This document shows, piece after piece, positions 2,357-64,000 of a DNA stretch of 64,000 bases; the first letter of the stretch is position 1, and each line of letters begins with the position of its first letter. Made by a program: the position numbers and the translations under genes. Source of the stretch: Bdellovibrionota bacterium (lineage in GTDB: Bacteria; Bdellovibrionota_G; JALEGL01; DATDPG01); the NCBI GenBank assembly GCA_035292885.1, contig DATDPG010000019.1, positions 59,570 to 123,569 on the forward strand, read 5' to 3'. The notes beneath the pieces were generated by a model. The model was not told the origin of the DNA, did not search any database, and was given only the letters and a program-made list of their open reading frames with translations.

Positions 2357-3553
2357 ATGAAGCCCATACCCATTACTGAGACCCACGGGACACCGGCTTC
2401 AGAGCACGCCATTGATCCGTACCGCGTCTTTTTCCCATTGGGCGTGGTGGCCGGCCTGGTCGGAGTCGGAATCTGGCCCCTTTATGCGGTCGGGTGGATT
2501 TCGACGATTCCATCGTCCATCCACGTGGAGCTTCAGCTGCAGGGCTTCCTATTCGCGTTCGTGCTGGGTTTCTTGATGACCGCGCTTCCGAGATTTTCGC
2601 TCACGTGGCACGCGACGTGGCCGGAGCTCGCCTGGTTTTCCGGCCTGTTCTTGATCGGAAATGTGGCCACCGCGTTTGGATATTTTCCCATCGGCCGAGC
2701 GGCATATCTGATCAATATGATTTCGCTGGCGATCTACGCCATTCGCCGTTTTCGGAAACGGAAATCGGATCCGCCTCCTGAATTTGTATTTGTAGGCGCG
2801 GCTCTTTTGATCGGTTTGTTCGCCGCGACTCTTCGCGTGGCGGGACTGTTCGGCTTCATGGAGTCCGGCGCCGAAGTTTTCGGGCGCAGATTGATGTCCG
2901 AAGGCATGATGTTGATGCTCGTCCTGGGAATCGGAGGCAAGCTCGCTCCGATGTTTTTCGGTTTCGACGCCACCTCTCCGCTCATTTCGAAGATGGGGGA
3001 GGGCGTCCGTTTTACGCGGAAACATCTTGCCTATCTTGGGATCGCGCTGGTTCTTCTTTTTTCTTTTGTCGCGGAATACGCGGTCTCCGAAAAGATCGGC
3101 CTCTGGCTCCGGGCGATCGCGGCGACACTGATTTTCTTGGGAACCATGAAGCTCCATCGCCGGACAAAAACCAAAGGGGTCCTGGTGGGAGTGCTGAAAT
3201 TTTCGTCCTGGGCGGTCTGCTTGTCGCTCTGGGGTTCCGCCATTCATCCGCGATATCGCGTGGAGGTCTTGCACGTCATGTTTATCGGCGGATTTGGAAT
3301 GATGATTTTGGCGATCGCCACGCGCGTGATCCTGTCCCACGGAAATTATCCTCTGGATCTAGAGCGACGATCGAAGTCTTTGTTCTTCGCCGCGTTTCTT
3401 CTGTTCGGCGCGCTGATTTGTCGTGCGATCGCGCCGCTATTTGTGGACGCGTATTTCCCCCTCCTCGGATTGGCCGGAACCTTCTGGCTTTTCGGCCTCC
3501 TCCTTTGGGGCGCACTCTTTTCGACCCGCACGATCGTCGTTCGGAAAAAATAA
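2357..3553 (+). CDS. NnrS-family polytopic membrane protein
   Basis: 398 aa with about 12 predicted TM helices. N-terminal pattern RVFFPLGVV...IWPLY...HVELQLQGFLFAFVLGFLMTALPRF resembles the NnrS signature (H.HE..FGF...GFLLTA). Confidence 0.55.
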   Translation: MKPIPITETHGTPASEHAIDPYRVFFPLGVVAGLVGVGIWPLYAVGWISTIPSSIHVELQLQGFLFAFVLGFLMTALPRFSLTWHATWPELAWFSGLFLIGNVATAFGYFPIGRAAYLINMISLAIYAIRRFRKRKSDPPPEFVFVGAALLIGLFAATLRVAGLFGFMESGAEVFGRRLMSEGMMLMLVLGIGGKLAPMFFGFDATSPLISKMGEGVRFTRKHLAYLGIALVLLFSFVAEYAVSEKIGLWLRAIAATLIFLGTMKLHRRTKTKGVLVGVLKFSSWAVCLSLWGSAIHPRYRVEVLHVMFIGGFGMMILAIATRVILSHGNYPLDLERRSKSLFFAAFLLFGALICRAIAPLFVDAYFPLLGLAGTFWLFGLLLWGALFSTRTIVVRKK

Positions 3554-3556
3554 AAG

Positions 3557-3590
3557 GGAGGAAGAGGTTTCCCTCTCCCTCCCTTCGGAG
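3557..3590. terminator. bidirectional intrinsic terminator hairpin between convergent genes
   Basis: aagggaggaagagg-tttc-cctctccctccctt forms a 14-bp stem with one mismatch between the NnrS and hsp20 stops. Confidence 0.45.
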
Positions 3591-4863: not shown

Positions 4864-4953
4864 TTGATCACGCAAAAATAGCCTTGGGCTCCTGCCACCC
4901 AAGGCTATTTTTGTGTCAGCTTAGCCCGACTAGTTCCCCCTTGTATTACCGGA

Positions 4954-43236: not shown

Positions 43237-45168
43237 TTAAGGGTTGGGGCGATCGAGTTCGCGCGGATGATCCCGTTCCATTTCATGGCGGGTCACTTTG
43301 CCCGTGAGCCACGTTACGTTCATCGGATATTCATCCGGATGGAATATCACGAAGAAGAGGTGCCACACGAGAATGGCCAGCGTCGCCAGCCACGCCTCAA
43401 AATAGTGAATCAACTCCGCCAGCGGGATGCCCCAAACGGGAAGGAATCTTGAAAACAGTTCTGGAAACCAGAGCGCAAAGCCCGTGACCGACATCACGAT
43501 CGTTCCCCAAATGAGCGCCCAATATTCCGCCTTGTGAATGTACGTGTACCGGCCGAGCTTCGGTGCCGTGGCTGCGCGCGCCCGGACGAGTTTAACGTAA
43601 TAAAAGATGTTGGCCGATAAATCCCGGACATCCGTGAGACGCGGAAGAAGCTCCCGAATCTCCTTTCGGCCCTGACGTGTGAAGATCGAATGGAAAATGT
43701 GAAGGACTCCCGCGCTTAACATGATCACCGCGCTGGTACGATGGATGACGCCGCGAGCGTGTTCACCCAAATGAACCCAATCCAAAATCACCGTCCAGCC
43801 GGCGCGAGAAAAATGAAGCGCGAAGCCGGTGATGACAAGCGTCGTAAAGCTCACCAGGAGCAGGCCGTGAGCCACGAGCTGAATCGTTGTGAATCGGGTG
43901 TAGACGACTTCTTCCCGGTGTGAGCGGATCTTTTTCACGACGGCCGCTGCATAAATGAGCAAGTTATGAAGAAGCATCAGGCCGATCGTGCTGACAATCA
44001 TCCAGAGATAGAGAATGCGAACCCAGTAGAGAATGGGGCTGGCTGTCGGAGAGGTGTCCAAGTGCACGGGAACGCGGCTGAACGCCTGCGTTGCATCGGG
44101 GTGGCACTTGCCGCAGGTCTTGGCCAGGTTGTCCGGATGAATCGAGGAGCGGGTATCGGAAGAGGGGAGAATCCGGTGCGTTTCATGGCAGCTGGAACAG
44201 TTTGCGACGGTGACCGAGCCGCGCCGGACGGCCATGCCATGATAACTCTGCATGTACGTTGAAAGCCGTTGAATTGAAAATCCGTATCGCTGGGCCAGAG
44301 TAAGATCGGAATGACAGTGGCCGCACGTCTTCGTTGTCAGCTGTGCAGGCGACACAGGCGATTCAGGCGATTTCGTGTCGACGATGGCGTGTTCGCCGTG
44401 GCAGTCCGTGCAGGCGGGGGCGTCCGTAATCCCGCGAGCGACGGCCTGTCCGTGCACGGAGACCTTATAATCTTCTAAGATATCGCTGTGGCATCTTCCA
44501 CATGTTGCGGGAATTTGTTTCTTCGAAACCGCGGACATCATTTCACGTCCCGGCTGGATCGTGTGATAGCCGTGACAGTCGGTACAGACGGCGGCTTTCA
44601 GATTACCAGCCGCAATGGCACGACCGTGGACGCTGTTTTTATACGCGCCGACAGGGTCGGACACGGGGATGTCGTATTTCTTGGCGAGTTTGATGTCGGC
44701 GTGACACTTGGCGCACAAAGCGGGGACGTTGGCTTTGCTGTGTCTCGCGGTTTCGCTGGTGAACGGCTGAATCAAATGCGCGTCGCCGTGGCAATCGACA
44801 CAAGAAGGCGCATCTGAAATCCCATTGTTCTTTGCAGTGCCGTGCGTGCTGCCGCGGTACTCCTTTTCGGCATCTTCATGACAGCTTCCGCAATTTACTT
44901 TTTGTGGAGCTTCCTCATGCTCGCCGAAGGGCCCGCCGGCGTGGCAGTCGGTGCAGGCTAGTTCGCCGTGGACGGAAGCCTTGAAAACTTTGGGATCCAC
45001 GACGTCATGGCAATCAACACACTTTTTCGGATCGATTCGGTTCGCGGCAAAAACCGACGAAATCGCAAACATTGCGCAGCCGACGAATGCCAAGCCCGAT
45101 TTTGTAAAGGGAACCCCGGTCGGTTTCAAAAATTGGACACTCATCCGATGAAAACGCCCGCCAAGCAT
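43237..45168 (-). CDS. 11-heme c-type cytochrome fused to a C-terminal b-type di-heme membrane domain (CbcL-like quinol oxidoreductase)
   Basis: Eleven CxxCH motifs in the N-terminal 380 aa. C-terminal 260 aa with about 5 TM helices and conserved His (HydC/FdnI-like). A possible alternative start at 45144 (MSVQFLK) gives a signal peptide. Confidence 0.75.
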   Translation of the reverse strand: MLGGRFHRMSVQFLKPTGVPFTKSGLAFVGCAMFAISSVFAANRIDPKKCVDCHDVVDPKVFKASVHGELACTDCHAGGPFGEHEEAPQKVNCGSCHEDAEKEYRGSTHGTAKNNGISDAPSCVDCHGDAHLIQPFTSETARHSKANVPALCAKCHADIKLAKKYDIPVSDPVGAYKNSVHGRAIAAGNLKAAVCTDCHGYHTIQPGREMMSAVSKKQIPATCGRCHSDILEDYKVSVHGQAVARGITDAPACTDCHGEHAIVDTKSPESPVSPAQLTTKTCGHCHSDLTLAQRYGFSIQRLSTYMQSYHGMAVRRGSVTVANCSSCHETHRILPSSDTRSSIHPDNLAKTCGKCHPDATQAFSRVPVHLDTSPTASPILYWVRILYLWMIVSTIGLMLLHNLLIYAAAVVKKIRSHREEVVYTRFTTIQLVAHGLLLVSFTTLVITGFALHFSRAGWTVILDWVHLGEHARGVIHRTSAVIMLSAGVLHIFHSIFTRQGRKEIRELLPRLTDVRDLSANIFYYVKLVRARAATAPKLGRYTYIHKAEYWALIWGTIVMSVTGFALWFPELFSRFLPVWGIPLAELIHYFEAWLATLAILVWHLFFVIFHPDEYPMNVTWLTGKVTRHEMERDHPRELDRPNP

Positions 45169-45213
45169 ATCTCAGCTTGGCGGGCGCCGAAACATGAACT
45201 CATTCTGAGCCTG

Positions 45214-45588
45214 TTATTTCGCCTTTGACTGCAGGTCTCGCGTGTATTCCGTCAACGCCGTAATGTCGGCGTCCGACAGTCCTTCCAACTTCTTCATCTT
45301 CCCTTTGCCCTCTTTCATCGACTTCTTAATGTCGTCGTCGGTGATTTTCTTGGCTTCGGGGGAAAGGATGCTGAGCCCTTCCGGCTTTTCGAGCTTCAGG
45401 GTTTTAGCTACCGGCATCCAGGAGCCGTCCGCCTTCTTTCCGCCGCCGTCTTCCGCGTGGCATTTCTTGCAATGCTTGTCGTACAGCGCCTTTTTCGCGG
45501 CGTCATCCGCCGCGAATGCGGACGCGGCAAACATCAAAGCGGGCACAACCAGGATTCCGATCAGTCCAATCAACGTCTTCTTCAACAT
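45214..45588 (-). CDS. periplasmic monoheme class I cytochrome c (paralog of 12625..12975)
   Basis: RBS ggagg 7 nt upstream of the ATG at 45588. Signal peptide. CKKCH. Near-identical core (LYDKHCKKCHAEDG.GKK...KTLKLEKPE) with the first copy. Confidence 0.8.
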   Translation of the reverse strand: MLKKTLIGLIGILVVPALMFAASAFAADDAAKKALYDKHCKKCHAEDGGGKKADGSWMPVAKTLKLEKPEGLSILSPEAKKITDDDIKKSMKEGKGKMKKLEGLSDADITALTEYTRDLQSKAK

Positions 45589-45644
45589 AGGCTTCCTCCA
45601 GTGTTTCTTTTTAGATGATGCCAAATTTACGAACATGATTCGGA

Positions 45645-45686
45645 TCAATGAAATGAAAAGAGGGCCGGCCCGTATGGGCCGGCCCC
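45645..45686 (-). terminator. intrinsic terminator after the outer-membrane cytochrome gene
   Basis: gggccggccc-gtat-gggccggccc GC hairpin followed on the minus strand by a T-rich run. Confidence 0.5.
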
Positions 45687-45719
45687 GTCAATCGCTCTGG
45701 ACGGTTCAAACTCTCGCGC

Positions 45720-48700
45720 TTAACGCAACGTCGCGTTCGGAACCGCCACGCCGGTGATTACCTTATACGTCCCTTGGAGGACGCCGACCTCGTATCCGGC
45801 GTTATGGACGCCCATGCTGCCGTCTCGAACCACCAGATTGTGGTTCCAGATCGCCCGGCGGATCTTGTCGGATCGGGCCCACTTGAAGGCCCCGCCGGCG
45901 GGATAGACGCTAACGCCGGGGTTGCAGTCCGCGGCGTTCGTGCAGGCCGTAGTAAGGTCGTTGTCGCACTTGCCGGCAATGTACGCCCCGCACGTGCTGA
46001 GGCACTTGTCGTGCGTCGGCGTCGGATCCAAAGGATCGACCGTACCACACGAGATGGTCGTATCTTCTTTGCACCGGTTCTTGCTCGAACCCGAGGTATT
46101 GCACGGACGCGCATCCGCGCCTGCACCGTTGAAGTTCGAGTAACCCAGAGCGTCCGGAACGATGCAGTCGTTGTCCGTGGAACACTCGATCTCATCCGTA
46201 CTCCCGGCGGTGGACCTCGGTTTTGCGATGGTGCACTTGTTGGTCGCAGTGACACAGGGGCCGAAGTACATCGTCCCCGTCGTCGCAATTTTGCAGTCCT
46301 CGTCCTTGGAGCAACTATAGGCCGAACGTTGATCACACTTTCCGGCTGTGATCGTCCCGCACGGTCCGTAGTTCGTCGCTGATACGGTCGTCACATTCAC
46401 CTTCTTCAGGTTGCATCCGGCATCCGAAGTGCAGAATTGAGCGTCGGCCACAATCGTAGTACTTGCTGCCGAGCAAGTCTTGACCGCGTCGCAACTCGTG
46501 TCACCAGCCGCCGTGCAACTGATGTAGGGCGCCAGCGTACACTTCTTGTTTGCGTTGCAGTCACCCGCGTCCAGTGTAGTGACACTGCACGTTCCCAGGT
46601 TCACGTCGTCGTACGCTTTGATGGCGTCCGACAAGAGGAGCGCAAGCCCCGTGACTTCGTCCTGGATCCCCTCGATCGTCCCATCGCCGTCGTAATCGCC
46701 GCGAGCCTCACGGTTAATCTCCGTGAGATCCGTGTGACATGGCGTGCACGCGCTGATGTTCGCGAGCTCACCCGCTTCACCGGCTACGGTCTCCTCTTCC
46801 TCGGCACCGACTAGATGGCCGACGCCGTGACCGCTCATAATGTTGAAAGAGTGACCGCCCAAGTGGCGGAACCCATCCTCCGTCGCATCCGGCCCCTCGG
46901 CCATGTGGCACGTGAGGCACTTCCGGTTCTCCGTCGGCAATGTCGGGTCACCCGAAACATCCGCCAGAATAAATCCCGGCTCGGAATGGAACGAATTCCC
47001 CGTTGTGAAGACATCGTCGATTCCGTTTTTGTCGAGGTCGAGAAGAGCCCCCTTTCCTTCGAGAACGGGAGCCTGCGGATTGTAGTGGACCTGTCGCGTG
47101 TAATAGTCCGCGTTTTGCTCCAACGTCTCGCAGAGCGTATCTGAAACGCCGTCGCGATTCGTGTCGCACGAAAACTCTCCGAAACTGTAGAGGCCGTCGT
47201 GGCACTTGTAACAAACGGCCGCCTTCCCGGCATCCACTGTCGATTCGTCGATGATCATCTCGAGCTCTCCGTGCATTCGAAGCTGGTCCTCGTTTGTCGC
47301 GTCGTGCGGGTCATGACACCCAGCGCACCCGATACCGACGAAAGCCTCCTGTTCCGTGATCGGCGTGAGGGCTTCCTCGCCCCCCTCCACATAATTGATG
47401 AAGCCCTTGGAGGTATGGCAGCGTGTACAGGCTGCGTTCGTGAGCCATGAAACCTGATAGCTGGCGGAGCCGTGCGAGACGCCGGTCATGTTGTGCGAGG
47501 AGTTGATCCATTCGGCCTCTTGCGTATGACACTGGCCGCAGATACCGGTCTGAGAAGCGGAGACACCGATCTTCGTGGCGTCGCCGTTGTGTCCCGAACC
47601 CGGGCCATGGCAATTCTCACACTGAACACCGCTTAGAGCGGCCACGGAAGGCGCATCCGCCAAGAAATCGGCGTATGTGCCCGGCTGGGTGGAAACGTCA
47701 AAGCCGGTCGAGGCCACGGCCTCGTCAAATCCGCCGTTTGCGGCGGACGTATTGTAACCGACCGTTTCAAAGCCCCACAGATAGGGCTCGGGTGCCAGCG
47801 ATGACATGGCCAGATACGAATTTTCGTAGAGCTTTGAGTGATTTGTTCCCTGCCACTCGCCGACTTTGTCCGGCATCGCCGAACCGTCATGGCATCCGGC
47901 GCACTCGGGCCTCGCCGCGTCGCCGGTGATACTTCCGATGCCTACATACGTCCCGGCATACATCCGGAACGAACCCACGATCGTGCAATGATCCACGCCG
48001 CCGTCCGAGGTGTATTTACAATTGGGCGCGACACGGCCGCACGCCCGTACACCATCCGCATCGGGTCCCACAGCCGATTCATCGACCGTCGCCGTGTAGG
48101 CCACCGTGTAATACCCCTCGACATCCGGCGTGAACTTGGGGAGCTGAAGCGCTGAGGCTACGGTTCCGGAATCGGCAAAAACGGCTGCAGATCCATCCGG
48201 GGGTGTCAGCGTCCAAGACCAGTCATCGTTGATGGGCTTGGCGCGCCTCGTGGTCGGCGTGCTCGTCGAAGGCAACGAACCGTTACACGCTGTCGAAGTG
48301 GATGTGTACTCCAATATGACCGAACTGTTCGGTCCCTGCAGGTAGAGGGGAACATTCAGCGGAACGGTCCAAAGACCGCTCGACCGCTGAATCTCGGCAC
48401 CGGCGTCCTGAACATAGACCACCTGTGTCGTGCTGTCGCTGTTCCCGGCACCGTCGTCCACCGTCAACCTGAAATAGAGTTTCGTATCTTCGATCGAAAC
48501 AGGGAGCGGTTGCCACTTGTACTCATCACTTTGTCCGCCGTGCGCGGCGTTCTCCTCAGCTTCCCTCAAACCGACGGTCAGAAAATCCTTAAGCGCGGGA
48601 GCGGTGAACGGAAGAGTTGAGGACGTGCTCCCGGCCGTCGCGGTCGCGAAGGGGCCGGAGACCTGCTGCCAGCTGTAGTTCACGACACTTCCGCGGCTGT

Positions 48701-49163
48701 TTTCGCCGGAGAGAATTCCACCCGCGTCTTCCAAATCGATGGCCAGTTCATCCGTTCCGAATCGTGTGCGTGTGGTGATGGTGGAACCGGAACCGTTCGT
48801 GATGACCGCAAGAATCGTCTTGGCCGTGACGCTGACCGTGTCGGTGCTTTCGGCATCGTGGAGAGAGAGTTTCAACACGTACGTGCCGGCCGCGTCCGCG
48901 ACAAAGCTGGTCGCGATTTCGGAACCGCCCGTCAGAGCGGCGGAAGAACCGTCGGGTTTCGATTCAAGCGTCCATATAATATTGCCGACGACCGTGCTTC
49001 CGGAACCGTCCAAATTCACGGTGTCGCCGATCAGGACCTTCTGGTCCTCGCCTGCGTTAGCGGCGGCGGTCCCTTCCGGATCGTCGTCGCATGCCGAAAC
49101 ACTGATCGCCACGGCGGCAGCCGCGAGAAGATTGATCATCCAAAGTCCCTTCGTGCTTTTCAT
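45720..49163 (-). CDS. 1147-aa cell-surface multiheme (8 CxxCH) lipoprotein cytochrome with PKD/Ig-like N-terminal domains and Cys-rich C-terminal region (OmcB-like position)
   Basis: RBS gagggagag. Signal with lipobox ISVSAC. Eight CxxCH motifs between roughly residues 420 and 830. C-terminal region with dozens of Cys. Last gene of the porin-cytochrome operon. Confidence 0.7.
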   Translation of the reverse strand: MKSTKGLWMINLLAAAAVAISVSACDDDPEGTAAANAGEDQKVLIGDTVNLDGSGSTVVGNIIWTLESKPDGSSAALTGGSEIATSFVADAAGTYVLKLSLHDAESTDTVSVTAKTILAVITNGSGSTITTRTRFGTDELAIDLEDAGGILSGENSRGSVVNYSWQQVSGPFATATAGSTSSTLPFTAPALKDFLTVGLREAEENAAHGGQSDEYKWQPLPVSIEDTKLYFRLTVDDGAGNSDSTTQVVYVQDAGAEIQRSSGLWTVPLNVPLYLQGPNSSVILEYTSTSTACNGSLPSTSTPTTRRAKPINDDWSWTLTPPDGSAAVFADSGTVASALQLPKFTPDVEGYYTVAYTATVDESAVGPDADGVRACGRVAPNCKYTSDGGVDHCTIVGSFRMYAGTYVGIGSITGDAARPECAGCHDGSAMPDKVGEWQGTNHSKLYENSYLAMSSLAPEPYLWGFETVGYNTSAANGGFDEAVASTGFDVSTQPGTYADFLADAPSVAALSGVQCENCHGPGSGHNGDATKIGVSASQTGICGQCHTQEAEWINSSHNMTGVSHGSASYQVSWLTNAACTRCHTSKGFINYVEGGEEALTPITEQEAFVGIGCAGCHDPHDATNEDQLRMHGELEMIIDESTVDAGKAAVCYKCHDGLYSFGEFSCDTNRDGVSDTLCETLEQNADYYTRQVHYNPQAPVLEGKGALLDLDKNGIDDVFTTGNSFHSEPGFILADVSGDPTLPTENRKCLTCHMAEGPDATEDGFRHLGGHSFNIMSGHGVGHLVGAEEEETVAGEAGELANISACTPCHTDLTEINREARGDYDGDGTIEGIQDEVTGLALLLSDAIKAYDDVNLGTCSVTTLDAGDCNANKKCTLAPYISCTAAGDTSCDAVKTCSAASTTIVADAQFCTSDAGCNLKKVNVTTVSATNYGPCGTITAGKCDQRSAYSCSKDEDCKIATTGTMYFGPCVTATNKCTIAKPRSTAGSTDEIECSTDNDCIVPDALGYSNFNGAGADARPCNTSGSSKNRCKEDTTISCGTVDPLDPTPTHDKCLSTCGAYIAGKCDNDLTTACTNAADCNPGVSVYPAGGAFKWARSDKIRRAIWNHNLVVRDGSMGVHNAGYEVGVLQGTYKVITGVAVPNATLR

Positions 49164-49189
49164 GTTTTCTCTCCCTCTCATGAAAGTTC

Positions 49190-49849
49190 TTACTGCGTAT
49201 GACATATGATGCAAGCCTGTCCATTGTCCGGATGCCGAAGCGGCGTATGGCAGCCCCGGCAATCCGCGTTAGGTAGATGGTTGACGTTGCTCGGTCGCCT
49301 CGGCGTGGCCATGTGAGCCGAGCTCGTTTGGTGGCACACCACGCACCTCTGTGCCCCATACGATTCCAGCGGGTAATGACAGTTCAGGCAGTGCCGATTT
49401 TGGGACGCCCCGAACCCGGCCATGTGATCGATCGGCTTCGTTTCCATATGGCACCGCTGGCAGAAGTCGGTCCGGTGGCACGTCATGCACTGCGATCGGT
49501 CGAAGCCCACCTGGAGCGCATGGCCGCGGAGGCGGAAGAATTGGTTGTGATTCGCCGGCGGCGTGATCTGGTGGCATTCCGAGCAGCTGGACTGCGTGTG
49601 GCAGAGGTTGCAGCTGTTCTTCGTGTCGAACCTAAACCGCTGCACCAGCGCGCCGTGCTCATGCTTGAACGTCAAATCGTGCCAGGCCGGTTTCGTGTCT
49701 TTGGTCATCCCGCCTTCGTGACATTCCGAACAGTCGCTGTCTCGCGCAACATCCGGGTGCTCCCACGTTGTGCCTTCGTCGCACCCTTTGTTGCCGAGAA
49801 AAAATGGGACCGCGAGCATTATTGTTAAAACAGACAACGATCGTCTGAT
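49190..49849 (-). CDS. nonaheme periplasmic c-type cytochrome (OmaB-like; paralog of the heptaheme 13308..13937)
   Basis: Nine CxxCH motifs. Shares the SCxxCH..SSCxxCH and FCxRCH patterns with the heptaheme gene. The 5' end is uncertain because the ORF extension runs into the 119-bp palindrome. Confidence 0.7.
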   Translation of the reverse strand: MRRSLSVLTIMLAVPFFLGNKGCDEGTTWEHPDVARDSDCSECHEGGMTKDTKPAWHDLTFKHEHGALVQRFRFDTKNSCNLCHTQSSCSECHQITPPANHNQFFRLRGHALQVGFDRSQCMTCHRTDFCQRCHMETKPIDHMAGFGASQNRHCLNCHYPLESYGAQRCVVCHQTSSAHMATPRRPSNVNHLPNADCRGCHTPLRHPDNGQACIICHTQ

Positions 49850-49851
49850 GG

Positions 49852-49970
49852 GGTGCCAAGAAAATACGTTCGGGCTCCGGTCCCGACGGTACCCCCCAAG
49901 TCCATGCTCGAGACTGCGCGTGGACTTGGGTGTCCCCGTCGGGCCACCCGAACGTATTTTCTTGGCACCC
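49852..49970. repeat. 119-bp near-perfect palindrome between porin and nonaheme cytochrome genes
   Basis: Arms gggtgccaagaaaatacgttcggg (49852-49875) and cccgaacgtattttcttggcaccc (49947-49970) are exact reverse complements. Nested inner arms cccgacgg/ccgtcggg and aagtcca/tggactt. Starts 1 nt after the porin stop. Confidence 0.7.
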
Positions 49971-49971
49971 T

Positions 49972-51312
49972 TCAAAAGTTCCAAGCGACCCTCACATCCA
50001 ACGTATGGAAATTGTCCAGGTCACTGGTTTCAAATTCGTACCCGAGCCGCCCCTCAAAGTCTTTGAGAAACTTCACGGTTCCCCGCGCATAGTACGTTTG
50101 GACGTTGTCCGATTCGTTCCCGGCTAAAAGGTTATATCGATAGAGGTAGAAAGCTGTTCCGGCCGTCAGCCGCAGCTTCCGCTTCAACAGGTCTTGGGCG
50201 ATGGAGAAAGATGTCCCGTACGTATCGTTCTGAAGTTCGTTGTCCTGTCCCAAATAGTAATCGCCGGTTAACGAAAGGCTCATGCCGTCGAGCGGCCATT
50301 CGATCGTTGACCCCGTCAAAAAGAACCGCTGAAAACCGTGATTGAACGCACTGGCGACCTGCTCTTCAATCAAAATACGGAATGCATACCCCGCATCCAG
50401 GGCAAAATGCTCGCCGATCCCCTTCATCCCGGTGAAGGCCATTTCGTAATACGGTTTGTATTCCCCGGCGAACGAATACGGATCCAGATCGATCACGCGG
50501 ACACCGTACGACTCGAGGAGACTGAAGAAGTGAAACTGGAGAGAAAGGTTCTGTTCGATGAATCGGTACCGGGTGTCGAGGGCCAAGTCCCGGACTTGAT
50601 CCAAGAACGATGTAAACCTCGAGGAAATCATGAGCCCCGGCTGGGCGTCCCACCAAACGCTCAGGCCGAAGAGATCATCTTCGATGTCACCGACGTTCGC
50701 CCGGAAGCCGGTGAAGTCATCCTTCAAATGAACGTAATCGAAACGGGCCCGAACCACCTTGACCGGATCGATCTCAAACGCTCCGCCGGCGACAAAATCG
50801 CCGCTGTCGGAACCGGTTTCCGTTTCGTAGAAATGGACCGGAACGCCGCCGTACGACATCAGCTTGAACCCTTTGGCTTCCCGCCACTGAAGGGAGAGGC
50901 CGTCGAAGTACAGCGACTCGAATTCCTGCCGGAACTGCCGTCCCGCGCGAAGCCGATCGAATACGCCGAGGTTGTTGGCGTCGAGGTAGGCGTGGTAGAT
51001 CCGCCCCGCGGCGCCGGTGTTGAAGGAGTCGTACACGCCATTGAACGTGGAATCCGAACTGTCGCCGTCCAGGTCGAAAATCCCGCCGGCCTGCAGGGAA
51101 ACCGCCACGCGGTCGTTCAAAGGCTCGCCCATGTTGAGCGAAAGAAGCGTTTCAAGATCCTGATCGCTGGTATCGGCGGTGGCGCGCAGTTTGTAACGGG
51201 TGCTGATGGAACCGAAAATATTGGAGTCTTCCGCGATCGCCGCATCGCAATAGACATACGCCCCAAAAAGGAGAAGCGTACATCCCAACCGACGGCGGCG
51301 AGAGGCGAGCAT
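49972..51312 (-). CDS. outer-membrane beta-barrel protein, candidate porin of the second porin-cytochrome conduit
   Basis: Signal MLASRRRRLGCTLLLFGAYVYCDAAIA. 446 aa. Amphipathic beta pattern. C-terminal VRVAWNF. Confidence 0.55.
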   Translation of the reverse strand: MLASRRRRLGCTLLLFGAYVYCDAAIAEDSNIFGSISTRYKLRATADTSDQDLETLLSLNMGEPLNDRVAVSLQAGGIFDLDGDSSDSTFNGVYDSFNTGAAGRIYHAYLDANNLGVFDRLRAGRQFRQEFESLYFDGLSLQWREAKGFKLMSYGGVPVHFYETETGSDSGDFVAGGAFEIDPVKVVRARFDYVHLKDDFTGFRANVGDIEDDLFGLSVWWDAQPGLMISSRFTSFLDQVRDLALDTRYRFIEQNLSLQFHFFSLLESYGVRVIDLDPYSFAGEYKPYYEMAFTGMKGIGEHFALDAGYAFRILIEEQVASAFNHGFQRFFLTGSTIEWPLDGMSLSLTGDYYLGQDNELQNDTYGTSFSIAQDLLKRKLRLTAGTAFYLYRYNLLAGNESDNVQTYYARGTVKFLKDFEGRLGYEFETSDLDNFHTLDVRVAWNF

Positions 51313-54211: not shown

Positions 54212-54214
54212 TTA

Positions 54215-54381
54215 AGCGTCCCGAGCCCGACATATCTTGATAGTCGGCCGCCGCTGCATCCCGGTTGGCTGCGTTGCTCCCCCTCGACGTACAGCTTTGC
54301 AAGTACGCCGTCGTCGTCGCGCCTTGCCAACCGGGCGCATCGGCGTCCTTTGTTATCAATCTATCTCGGGCTCGGGACGCT
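54215..54381. mobile_element. 167-bp MITE-like palindromic element, copy A
   Basis: Terminal inverted repeats agcgtcccgagcccga / tcgggctcgggacgct. Internally an imperfect long hairpin. About 94% identical to the reverse complement of the element at 63140..63306. Begins 3 nt after the gdhA stop. Confidence 0.6.
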
Positions 54382-54442
54382 AGCGTTCCATAAGGGAACA
54401 CGGCGTTCTTTGCGGCGCCGGGTGGAATGTTATCATGCCGAT

Positions 54443-61870: not shown

Positions 61871-63141
61871 GCGGAAAAATTCAAAAAGAACAGAGCATGG
61901 TCGTTCAAAAAGAAATGATCGCCGACTATTACAGCCGTCTTTCCCGGGCGCACGACGAAGGGAAGAAGGTCGTCTACACGTTTGTCCCCGGAAATTTGAT
62001 TGAATTGATCGACGCGCTCGGATTTTTGCCCGGTCTACCCGAGATCAACGCTCTTCAATCGGGGATGCGCGGCAAGTCGGCGGGGTACATCGCCGAGGCG
62101 GAAAAGGCGGGACATTCGGAAGATGTCTGCACGTACGTCAAGTGCGACATCGGGATGAAAAAATCGGGAAACATCGGTCCGACCGGCGAGAAAATTCCCG
62201 AACCGGATCTGTTGCTCCTGTCGTACACCGGCTGCTTCACCTTCATGAAATGGTTCGAGCTTCTCCGGAAGGAATACAACTGCCCGGTGGCGATGCTCCA
62301 CGTTCCCTACCAAGCGGACGGCGTCATCACCGACAACATGCGCAACTACGTCGTCGACCAGTTAAAAAACAACATTATCCCGACCATGGAAAAGGTGGTC
62401 GGTCGAAAGCTCGATCTGGACGAATTGTCGGCCCGCATGGCTCGCTCGGCGAAGGCGGAAGACGATTTGGTAAGCGTGTTCCAGTCGGCCAAGAAACGGC
62501 CGTCGCCGATCGACGCGTATTTCGGGGGCGTCTATTATATCGGGCCGATCTTCACGGCGTTCCGGGGCAGCGAAGCGTGCCAGACCTATTACCGCGTTCT
62601 CCGCGGTGAAGTGGAAGAGCGGATCGAGGAGCACAAAGGGCCGGTGACGCCCGAAGGGGACATTTCGCAGGAAAAATACCGTCTCGTCGTAGAGGGGCCT
62701 CCCAATTGGACCAACTTCCGGGAGTTCTGGAAGATGTTTTACGATGAGGGGGCGGTCGTTGTCGCCTCGACCTATACGAAAGTCGGGGGCGTCTACGACC
62801 GAGGCTTCCGGCACGATCCGAATCGTCCGCTCGAATCGCTCGCCGAGTACTGTCTCGGCTGTTACACGAACTTGAATCTCCCGTCGCGGATTTCGATGCT
62901 GGAAAAATATGTGAAGGAGTACGACGCGGACGGCTTTCTCATCAATTCGGTCAAGAGCTGCAATTCCTTCTCGGCCGGACAGCTTTTGATTTTGAGGGAA
63001 CTCGAAGCCCGCACGGGAAAGGCGGGAGCGTTCATCGAGACGGACCTCGTCGACCCCCGGTACTTCTCGGCGTCGAACGTGAAGACTCGACTTGAGTCGT
63101 ACTTTCGAATGATCGACATGAAAAGGGCAAGGGCAGCCTAG
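61867..63141 (+). CDS. bcrB: benzoyl-CoA reductase / 2-hydroxyacyl-CoA dehydratase family subunit (BcrB/BadE-like)
   Basis: 424 aa. ATGA overlap with the preceding gene. Confidence 0.6.
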   Translation: MSGKIQKEQSMVVQKEMIADYYSRLSRAHDEGKKVVYTFVPGNLIELIDALGFLPGLPEINALQSGMRGKSAGYIAEAEKAGHSEDVCTYVKCDIGMKKSGNIGPTGEKIPEPDLLLLSYTGCFTFMKWFELLRKEYNCPVAMLHVPYQADGVITDNMRNYVVDQLKNNIIPTMEKVVGRKLDLDELSARMARSAKAEDDLVSVFQSAKKRPSPIDAYFGGVYYIGPIFTAFRGSEACQTYYRVLRGEVEERIEEHKGPVTPEGDISQEKYRLVVEGPPNWTNFREFWKMFYDEGAVVVASTYTKVGGVYDRGFRHDPNRPLESLAEYCLGCYTNLNLPSRISMLEKYVKEYDADGFLINSVKSCNSFSAGQLLILRELEARTGKAGAFIETDLVDPRYFSASNVKTRLESYFRMIDMKRARAA

Positions 63142-63306
63142 TGTCCCGAGCCCGAAATAGATTGATAACAAAGGTCGCCGATGCGCCCGGATGGCAAGGC
63201 GCGACGACGAAGGCGTACTTGCAAAGCTGTACGTCGAGGAGGAGCAACGCAGCCAGCCGGGATGCAGCGGAGGCCGTCTATCAAGATATGTCGGGCTCGG
63301 GGCACT
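63140..63306. mobile_element. 167-bp MITE-like palindromic element, copy B (inverted relative to copy A), inserted between bcrB and bcrA
   Basis: TIRs gtgtcccgagcccga / tcgggctcggggcac. Internal sequence about 94% identical to the reverse complement of 54215..54381. Confidence 0.6.
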
Positions 63307-63308
63307 AA

Positions 63309-64000
63309 GGTGGAGTGCTTTATCGGAATTGACTTGGGATCGACCACCACAAAAGCGGTCATCATCGATCGAAACCGGAATATTTTGGGCAGTGGAATTA
63401 CGAACAGCCGGAGTAATTATGACGTCGCCTGCAAGATCGCCCGCGAGGAGGCGTTCACAAACGCCCGCTTCTCTCTGATTCGCGGTAAGGCAAAGCAGCG
63501 GGGCTTGCTGAATTCGGAGGGAGAGAAGGCCCTGGTCCGACTCGGAAACGAATTTTTCGTCCAAGACTTTTTGATCCAGTTGTGGAACCTTCGCGATTTA
63601 GCCACGGAACGGCTTCGGAACGAGCGCTATGCAACTTCCCGATTGACACTGCAAAAAATTCTCAGAGAAATATTTGAAGATATTGAAGAAAAGGCGATGA
63701 AAGACGTCGGGGGAGGGGGGAGACGAAAATCGGACTTTTTCCGAGATCTGGCCGGAGCCTATTATCAAGAATCGGCGGAACGTTACGCCCGGGAGGGAAA
63801 AATCCCCTTCGAGCTGCTGATGAGCGTGTTCGACGGCGTGATTTTTCTTGTCGAGAATTCGATGGAGGAAAAAGGATTCGCTGAAATCATGAAAGGTCTC
63901 TTCGACCGGGTCGGCTTCGGCATCTTCCCGAAGGAACGGGAAACCGATTGGCGGGAGTTGATCGAGGCAACGGCCTCCACGCCTTTCAATGAAGCGGGAA
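63309..64000 (+). CDS. bcrA: BadF/BadG/BcrA/BcrD-type ATPase (benzoyl-CoA reductase alpha-like / activase), partial
   Basis: GTG start. VECFIGIDLGSTTTKAVIID acetate/sugar-kinase-fold ATPase signature of the BcrA/HgdC family. Runs off the window end. Confidence 0.6.

Follow-up and report, generated by a model that had tools for sequence, protein, structure and literature searches.

The locus lies in a 64,000-nt stretch of DNA (the window) from a metagenome-assembled genome (MAG) of a Bdellovibrionota bacterium, which carries the locus tag prefix VI895_ at NCBI. A gene for an outer-membrane beta-barrel protein, an open frame for a nonaheme cytochrome c, and a gene for a multiheme/PKD-domain cytochrome follow one another on the minus strand (Table 1), with a small cytochrome c and a multiheme-cytochrome b fusion encoded further downstream. 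The barrel gene and the downstream cytochrome genes form a porin-cytochrome-type cluster. Although the 446-aa barrel protein had no Pfam match and its closest homologue was only 58% identical, its AlphaFold model (pLDDT 86) places about 22 strands behind a signal helix, and the best PDB matches of this model are the AlgE, Occ, and MOMP barrels. An earlier note on this DNA had called the protein a porin, and the model and its PDB matches support that call as far as an outer-membrane beta-barrel. The cluster (43237-51312 of the window) recurs at loci L007 to L009 as a barrel, a nonaheme cytochrome, a multiheme/PKD protein of about 900 to 1150 aa, a small cytochrome c, and a multiheme-cytochrome b fusion. 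Rieske/cytochrome b genes lie near it, and it is kept across uncultivated "Deltaproteobacteria"/Bdellovibrionota MAGs with a barrel family that has no Pfam model.

The boundary between the barrel and nonaheme cytochrome genes is occupied by a large palindrome. It was first described as a near-perfect palindrome of 119 bp; the palindrome is real, and an inverted-repeat search of the window extends it by one base to 120 bp. As had also been claimed, it starts 1 nt after the barrel stop codon (TGA at 49974-49972, palindrome from 49970) and has exact outer arms of 24 nt (100% complementary) enclosing nested inner arms (49882-49907 and 49918-49943, 81% complementary). The inner arms resolve into perfect stems of 8 and 10 bp, set off by internal loops of 3x7 and 5x5 nt and closed by a 16-nt apical loop. 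All 42 bp of the three stems (24 + 8 + 10) therefore pair with 0 mismatches, and the irregularities are confined to the three loops. RNA folding, which the earlier note had proposed as a check, gave -93.5 kcal/mol for the minus (mRNA) strand and -93.3 kcal/mol for the plus strand, with z-scores of -11.1 and -11.8, respectively, and 0 of 200 shuffles matched this stability. The chance expectation for the 24-mer arm in the window is 0.00.

Table 1. Positions of genes, palindrome segments, and translation signals in the window (RNA segments are given in the mRNA sense).
Feature	Position	Strand	Remarks
446-aa outer-membrane beta-barrel ("porin") gene	49972..51312	-	Stop TGA 49972-49974; C-terminus ..VAWNF
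Nonaheme cytochrome c open frame	49190..49984	-	264 aa including 40 inserted residues; 9 CXXCH
Multiheme/PKD-domain cytochrome, 1147 aa	45720..49163	-	Same cluster, downstream
Palindrome (40 codons)	49851..49970	-	From arms and RNA fold; mRNA sense is the minus strand
5' outer arm GGGUGCCAAGAAAAUACGUUCGGG	49947..49970	-	Perfect partner of 3' outer arm
A-tract AAGAAAAUA	49955-49963	-	Within 5' outer arm
3' outer arm CCCGAACGUAUUUUCUUGGCACCC	49851..49874	-	Perfect partner of 5' outer arm
U-rich tract UAUUUUCUU	49858-49866	-	Within 3' outer arm
Stem 2, 5' strand CCCGACGG	49936..49943	-	Partner 49882-49889
Stem 2, 3' strand CCGUCGGG	49882..49889	-	Partner 49936-49943
Stem 3, 5' strand CCCAAGUCCA	49921..49930	-	Partner 49895-49904
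Stem 3, 3' strand UGGACUUGGG	49895..49904	-	Partner 49921-49930
Apical loop, 16 nt, CGCGCAGUCUCGAGCA	49905..49920	-	From RNA fold
Whole element on the mRNA			GGGUGCC-AAGAAAAUA-CGUUCGGG / UGG / CCCGACGG / GGACA / CCCAAGUCCA / 16-nt loop / UGGACUUGGG / GGGUA / CCGUCGGG / ACCGGAG / CCCGAACG-UAUUUUCUU-GGCACCC
TTG at the ancestral cytochrome ATG position	49982..49984	-	Overlaps last codons of barrel gene
GAGGG, Shine-Dalgarno-like	49989..49993	-	4 nt before TTG 49984; GAGG/GAGA in orthologues
Signal-peptide codons after the insert, IRRSLSVLTIMLAVPFFLGNKGC	49781..49849	-	Basic RR, hydrophobic core, conserved GNKGC
ATG of NCBI annotation (HLG18486.1, 209 aa)	49817..49819	-	No Shine-Dalgarno motif; no usable signal peptide left

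The palindrome was absent from every orthologous barrel-cytochrome junction examined (L007, L008, L009, L046, and the P0002 locus). At each of these the start of the cytochrome gene overlaps or abuts the barrel stop with zero spacer. At the L008 junction (..GTATGGAAGTTTTGA..), the barrel frame ends in W-K-F-stop and the cytochrome frame opens with M-E-V-L; L007, L009, and L046 show the equivalent arrangement, and gene coordinates give the same 13-nt overlap for the P0002 locus. At the protein level, 17 orthologous cytochromes (45-60% identity) align to the 264-aa frame except for a block of 40 residues that is unique to the window sequence (alignment A1), and the 90% cluster of the window cytochrome contains only its 264-aa and 209-aa forms. 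The window junction is TTG GAA CTT TTG AA, followed by the 120 nt and then by C ATC AGA CGA TCG, so that the insert comprises exactly 40 codons between cytochrome codons 5 and 6, 1 nt past the barrel stop. In the orthologues, the signal peptide runs for 21-27 residues up to a conserved (G/A)NKGC motif. Deleting 49851-49970 in silico leaves the reconstructed empty site GGAACTTTTGAACATCAGACGATCG and yields MELLNIRRSLSVLTIMLAVPFFLGNKGC (compare MEVLRRSVVPTVLVAALLPFAMGNKGC in L008), which restores a normal signal peptide of 28 residues. Because the 120 bp are missing from all orthologous junctions and their removal restores a normal signal peptide, these sequence comparisons strongly support an in-frame, lineage-specific insertion into the start of the cytochrome gene. 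A de novo origin appears unlikely, since a new stretch of 120 nt would require a template and the halves of the palindrome have no local or orthologous match. We also rejected the decay of a perfect palindrome and a local inverted duplication as origins: the loops formed by the mismatches are asymmetric, flanking and orthologous sequences match neither half, and the orthologues offer no room for an ancestral half.

Two further features of this region of the cytochrome were observed. In orthologue P0090 (L046 115-150), about three copies of a 7-nt tandem repeat, AGCGTAT, lengthen the n-region by about 14 residues, and the n-region at the barrel/cytochrome junction seems to be a spot that tolerates indels. 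The (G/A)NKGC motif (window 49781-49795; A1), which follows the hydrophobic core, is kept in nearly all orthologous cytochromes and may be an atypical lipobox with its Cys as the lipidated +1 residue, off the canonical L-[AS]-[GA]-C pattern.

The palindrome had been reported to occupy the apparent 5' end of the nonaheme ORF, and the 264-aa frame from TTG 49984 does pass through it. Public annotations disagree on this point, with the ENA gene call starting the cytochrome at the upstream TTG (264 aa) and NCBI annotating the 209-aa form. The frame from the ancestral start is open through the whole insert, which has zero stops in all six frames (P = 0.011 against shuffles that preserve the stem-loop structure). 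Openness of the single frame has P = 0.30, which multiplied by 1/3, the probability that the length is a multiple of three, comes to about 0.10; in-frame status by itself is thus a coincidence of about 1 in 10. The inserted peptide, GAKKIRSGGPTGTPKSTRSLEHGLGGYRRDRSPNVFSWHP, is hydrophilic throughout and has 8 K+R against 2 D+E for a net charge of +6, a composition that suits a cleaved signal-peptide n-region.

An alternative is that the cytochrome start has moved to TTG 49837 or ATG 49819, leaving the palindrome as an untranslated intergenic hairpin whose open frame is coincidental. The 209-aa NCBI annotation, the roughly 10% chance of an in-frame, stop-free insert, and the replacement of the ancestral ATG by TTG, which could mean that the old start is being abandoned, all fit this explanation, and a very stable hairpin from +15 of the upstream start would be a severe obstacle to translation. 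However, Shine-Dalgarno motifs are common in this genome and the rule among neighboring genes, and nothing like one precedes TTG 49837 or ATG 49819. c-type cytochromes need export for heme attachment (cytochrome c maturation), and the form starting at ATG 49819 keeps just MLAVPFFLG ahead of the conserved GNKGC, which leaves no signal peptide. A start at TTG 49837 would give a signal peptide without the basic n-region (RR/KR/KK) that is kept in all orthologues, whereas the RR codons are preserved in the window just 3' of the palindrome. Six-frame openness (P of about 0.01) also speaks against an untranslated spacer. We therefore consider a relocated start unlikely and translation through the insert likely.

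If the insert is translated, synthesis of the cytochrome would begin at the ancestral start preceded by a Shine-Dalgarno motif (now TTG 49984) and run straight across the palindrome. The predicted pre-protein is MELLK followed by the 40 inserted residues and IRRSLSVLTIMLAVPFFLGNKGC, giving a signal peptide with an unusually long n-region. This region would be cleaved off on export and leave the mature cytochrome unchanged, which would explain why the insertion is tolerated. The locus would then show in a natural setting how a gene can keep a strong hairpin-forming insert, namely by way of a disposable signal-peptide n-region, although the finding is limited to a single locus in an uncultivated lineage. 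The public 209-aa annotation, which lacks a signal peptide, is probably wrong. Orthologues P0076 and P0084 look likewise truncated by gene callers.

On balance, we lean toward interpreting the palindrome as a lineage-specific, apparently single-copy, structured inverted-repeat insertion of 120 bp, MITE/RPE-like selfish DNA that is tolerated in the translated n-region of the cytochrome and has side effects at the RNA level. Its layout of an A-tract, a GC-rich interrupted hairpin, and a U-tract resembles a bidirectional terminator, and a terminator scan flagged a hairpin with a U-tract on both strands, inside the arms. On the mRNA strand, UAUUUUCUU (6 U in 8) comes directly after the GC-rich stem that ends in ..CCCGAACG, as in an intrinsic terminator. 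Since the hairpin begins at +15 of the cytochrome ORF and 1 nt past the barrel UGA, ribosomes would have to melt its base both to terminate and to re-initiate, which would probably weaken the ancestral 1:1 translational coupling and yield less cytochrome per transcript. The hairpin and UAUUUUCUU could also cause partial transcription termination, and the hairpin may shield the 3' end of the upstream barrel mRNA, favoring that mRNA. Such effects would be by-products of the insertion rather than ancestral design. If they are true, the insertion amounts to a natural experiment on a porin-cytochrome electron conduit whose tight translational coupling has been broken. The search for promoters gave no sigma-70 promoter, and a sigma-54 promoter, suggested by TGGCAC in the arm, was rejected because no TTGC follows at -12.

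The earlier note had instead seen a strong candidate for an attenuator or processing site that sets the stoichiometry of porin and cytochrome, that is, a dedicated intra-operon regulatory RNA (attenuator, partial terminator, or RNase III site) selected to set the barrel:cytochrome ratio. Mechanistically, this proposal stands as possible. The A-tract/hairpin/U-tract layout lies on the mRNA strand exactly at the cistron boundary, the 42 bp pair perfectly with irregularities only in loops, and the sequence is identical in six assemblies. The outer arms alone form a perfect duplex of 24 bp, a length of double-stranded RNA that suffices for RNase III. Conservation, however, does not support a purpose-built stoichiometry attenuator: as judged from the sequences compared, the palindrome is absent in L007, L008, L009, L046, the P0002 locus, and the 17 orthologous proteins, and the genes of the orthologous operons overlap without a spacer instead. 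No Rfam family matched at gathering thresholds (the best match in E-value mode, DUF3800-IV, scored 24.1 bits against 60.7), and the invariant sequence provides no covariation support. The palindrome also sits in what is most likely coding sequence, and it folds equally well on both strands, which indicates a palindrome at the DNA level rather than a strand-specific RNA. We accordingly regard a dedicated regulatory RNA as improbable.

Elsewhere in the window, bidirectional intrinsic terminators with an A-tract, a GC stem, and a U-tract lie between convergent genes at 4870-4916 and 3553-3586, and these clean examples show that the organism uses this style of terminator. The palindrome shares with bidirectional terminators and with terminator-like mobile elements such as the pneumococcal SPRITE the sequence of A-tract, GC-rich hairpin, and U-tract on both strands. 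Unlike typical terminators, it has a far longer, interrupted 42-bp stem, with seven more base pairs outside the A/U tracts, and unlike terminators at the end of a transcription unit, it lies inside an operon and an ORF, between co-oriented, ancestrally overlapping genes, where termination is only predicted.

We compared the palindrome with the known kinds of small repeated elements. Like a MITE, it is small (120 bp), has perfect 24-bp terminal inverted repeats (TIRs), and contains no transposase-sized ORF. There was no target-site duplication: the flanks (..CTTTTGAA before the element and CATCAGACG.. after it, or ..TTGAA, GGG...CCC, CATCAG across the two junctions) contain no direct repeat, which counts against the insertion we favor. 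No parent insertion sequence with matching TIRs was found by exact 18-mer search of 185,579 genomes, a search that would miss divergent TIRs. The suggestion of a REP/MITE-like insertion in the earlier note thus holds for the insertion itself, its small size, and its perfect TIRs, but it lacks a target-site duplication and a second copy in the data searched.

The closest functional parallel is the Rickettsia palindromic element (RPE), a hairpin-forming palindromic insert of about 100-150 bp found in frame in protein genes, where it adds a tolerated peptide segment (PMC10969869). The palindrome here likewise forms a hairpin and lies in frame, with its 40 stop-free codons between cytochrome codons 5 and 6 adding a peptide that appears tolerated. 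RPEs, however, form families of tens of copies with a conserved encoded peptide in Rickettsia and insert in mature domains, whereas this palindrome is single, had no relatives in our searches (the peptide searches described below included), belongs to a different phylum, and lies in a cleavable signal peptide. The Correia/NEMIS elements (CREE) of Neisseria are co-transcribed with their neighbors and form long mRNA hairpins that are bound or cleaved by RNase III, altering adjacent expression (PMC2649163). At 100-155 bp with terminal inverted repeats of about 26 bp, they are similar to the palindrome in size and arms, but they are highly repeated, with a TA duplication and IHF and promoter motifs, none of which the palindrome shows, and the sequences are not similar.

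REP dimers form large hairpin structures, some of them within genes (PMC3733652), and E. coli REP hairpins no more than 15 nt from a stop codon are reported, on the basis of earlier work, to stall ribosomes and lower translation of the upstream gene (PMC12306157). The hairpin here likewise begins less than 15 nt downstream of a stop codon. By definition, REPs are high-copy units of 20-40 bp in which a GTAG/CGTC head stays unpaired and an 8-9 bp stem, beginning with A-T pairs, carries a loop of 4-5 nt. In the palindrome, by contrast, the sole CGTC is part of a 5-7 bp stem (CGTCGGG-loop-CCCGAACG), the loops measure 3 and 7 nt, and the outer arms are not self-complementary. The arms differ from REPs and REPINs in not being short palindromes headed by an unpaired GTAG/CGTC; the element occurs as a single copy, and no RAYT gene lies nearby. 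An integron attC site was also rejected: the order is GTT...AAC rather than the 5' R'' RYYYAAC ... GTTRRRY R' 3' core sites required in a cassette array, CCCGAAC and GTTCGGG are off consensus, and there is no integron context. We therefore class the element as an orphan small palindromic insertion element outside every named family.

Searches for further copies were carried out at several scales. The 24-mer arm had no second copy in the window at up to 3 mismatches, and blastn-short against the window and the fetched loci found no relative in the window, in the 7.6 kb beyond it (together about 72 kb of this genome), or in the orthologous loci. In JGI metagenomes, chance matches aside, an exact 18-mer of the arm was confined to this locus (L033), also in the sample that holds this organism; in the 185,579 GTDB representative genomes, among which the source MAG is not included, it gave only single chance matches. 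The other 18-mer matches in metagenomes and representative genomes were isolated stretches of 18-19 nt, in numbers near the chance expectation. A 16-mer scan of viral contigs gave no match to the element, and blastn for distant matches in plasmids and phages found no relative. A six-frame peptide query against 5.8 billion proteins returned nothing at E <= 10; the cluster representative of the cytochrome in that set is the 209-aa form, so that the query could have no self control. An exhaustive phmmer search of the translated frame against 1.84 billion representatives returned 0 matches at E <= 0.001. The earlier note had held that its readings would be refuted by a unique arm together with continuous translation through the palindrome; half of this applies, in that no other occurrence of the arm turned up in any of the data searched and the palindrome leaves the frame open.

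The window also contains a second palindromic MITE-like element of about 170 bp, which has no similarity to the 120-bp palindrome. Its two copies (54212-54384 on the plus strand and 63136-63310 on the minus strand) are 94% identical over 164 nt in opposite orientations and fold as RNA with -94 kcal/mol (z = -6.8). Its ends, YTAR+GCGTCCCGAGCCCGA, suggest a TA-type target. Copy 1 starts 1-3 nt past the stop codon of a glutamate dehydrogenase gene, and copy 2 overlaps the second HGD-D gene at its TAG stop. That the genome hosts such a family raises the prior for a similar origin of the orphan palindrome.

The palindrome might belong to an abundant REP/REPIN/MITE family that is spread through the genome, with its other copies beyond the sequence examined. 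This would be in keeping with its small size, its perfect 24-bp TIRs, the presence of a different MITE-like family with 2 copies in 64 kb, the breaking of assemblies inside the element, and a genome comparison that covered only about 72 kb. Against this are the lack of relatives in the window, the adjoining 7.6 kb, and the orthologous loci, the restriction of the exact arm 18-mer to this locus in the JGI metagenomes and to chance singles in the 185,579 genomes, the lack of peptide relatives among the 5.8 billion proteins and 1.84 billion representatives, and the lack of CGTC/GTAG REP architecture. The contigs, moreover, end 29-57 nt into the palindrome, close to the hairpin apex and not at the edge of the element. 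Membership in an abundant family is thus quite improbable, and for the insertion we favor, we infer mobility by elimination, no second copy or donor element having been found. A bolder proposal, which we consider a long shot, is that the palindrome is the first member seen of an RPE-like class outside Rickettsiales, consisting of terminator-mimicking palindromes that are kept stop-free in six frames and so can settle at gene junctions or in coding sequence. In this host, partial termination, RNase III processing, or ribosome stalling would have allowed its co-option to uncouple and retune the barrel:cytochrome ratio of an extracellular-electron-transfer conduit.

The whole palindrome is present in the ENA contig k141_952286 (L001). 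In five further assemblies from ENA, Logan, and JGI (L002 to L006), the barrel gene is joined to the left half of the palindrome and the contig ends near the hairpin apex, while another contig (L044) begins 13 nt before the right end of the palindrome and runs on into the cytochrome. An assembly or amplification artefact such as a fold-back chimera, which could be suspected because five of the six assemblies end within the palindrome, is hardly credible, as both junctions and the asymmetric interior are identical across the independent ENA, Logan, and JGI assemblies, the palindrome is not copied from flanking sequence, and its flanks are collinear with those of the orthologues. The breaks near the apex probably arose where a strong hairpin disrupted coverage or the assembly graph, and not from a repeat boundary or an empty-site polymorphism, and the palindrome probably accounts for the fragmentation of these five of six metagenome assemblies at the barrel-cytochrome operon. 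An invertible switch, with 24-bp inverted repeats around 72 bp, was rejected as well, since the interior has the same orientation in all five partial contigs and a 72-bp segment would be very short for a recombinase to invert. Contig k141_952286 itself ends inside copy 2 of the element of about 170 bp.
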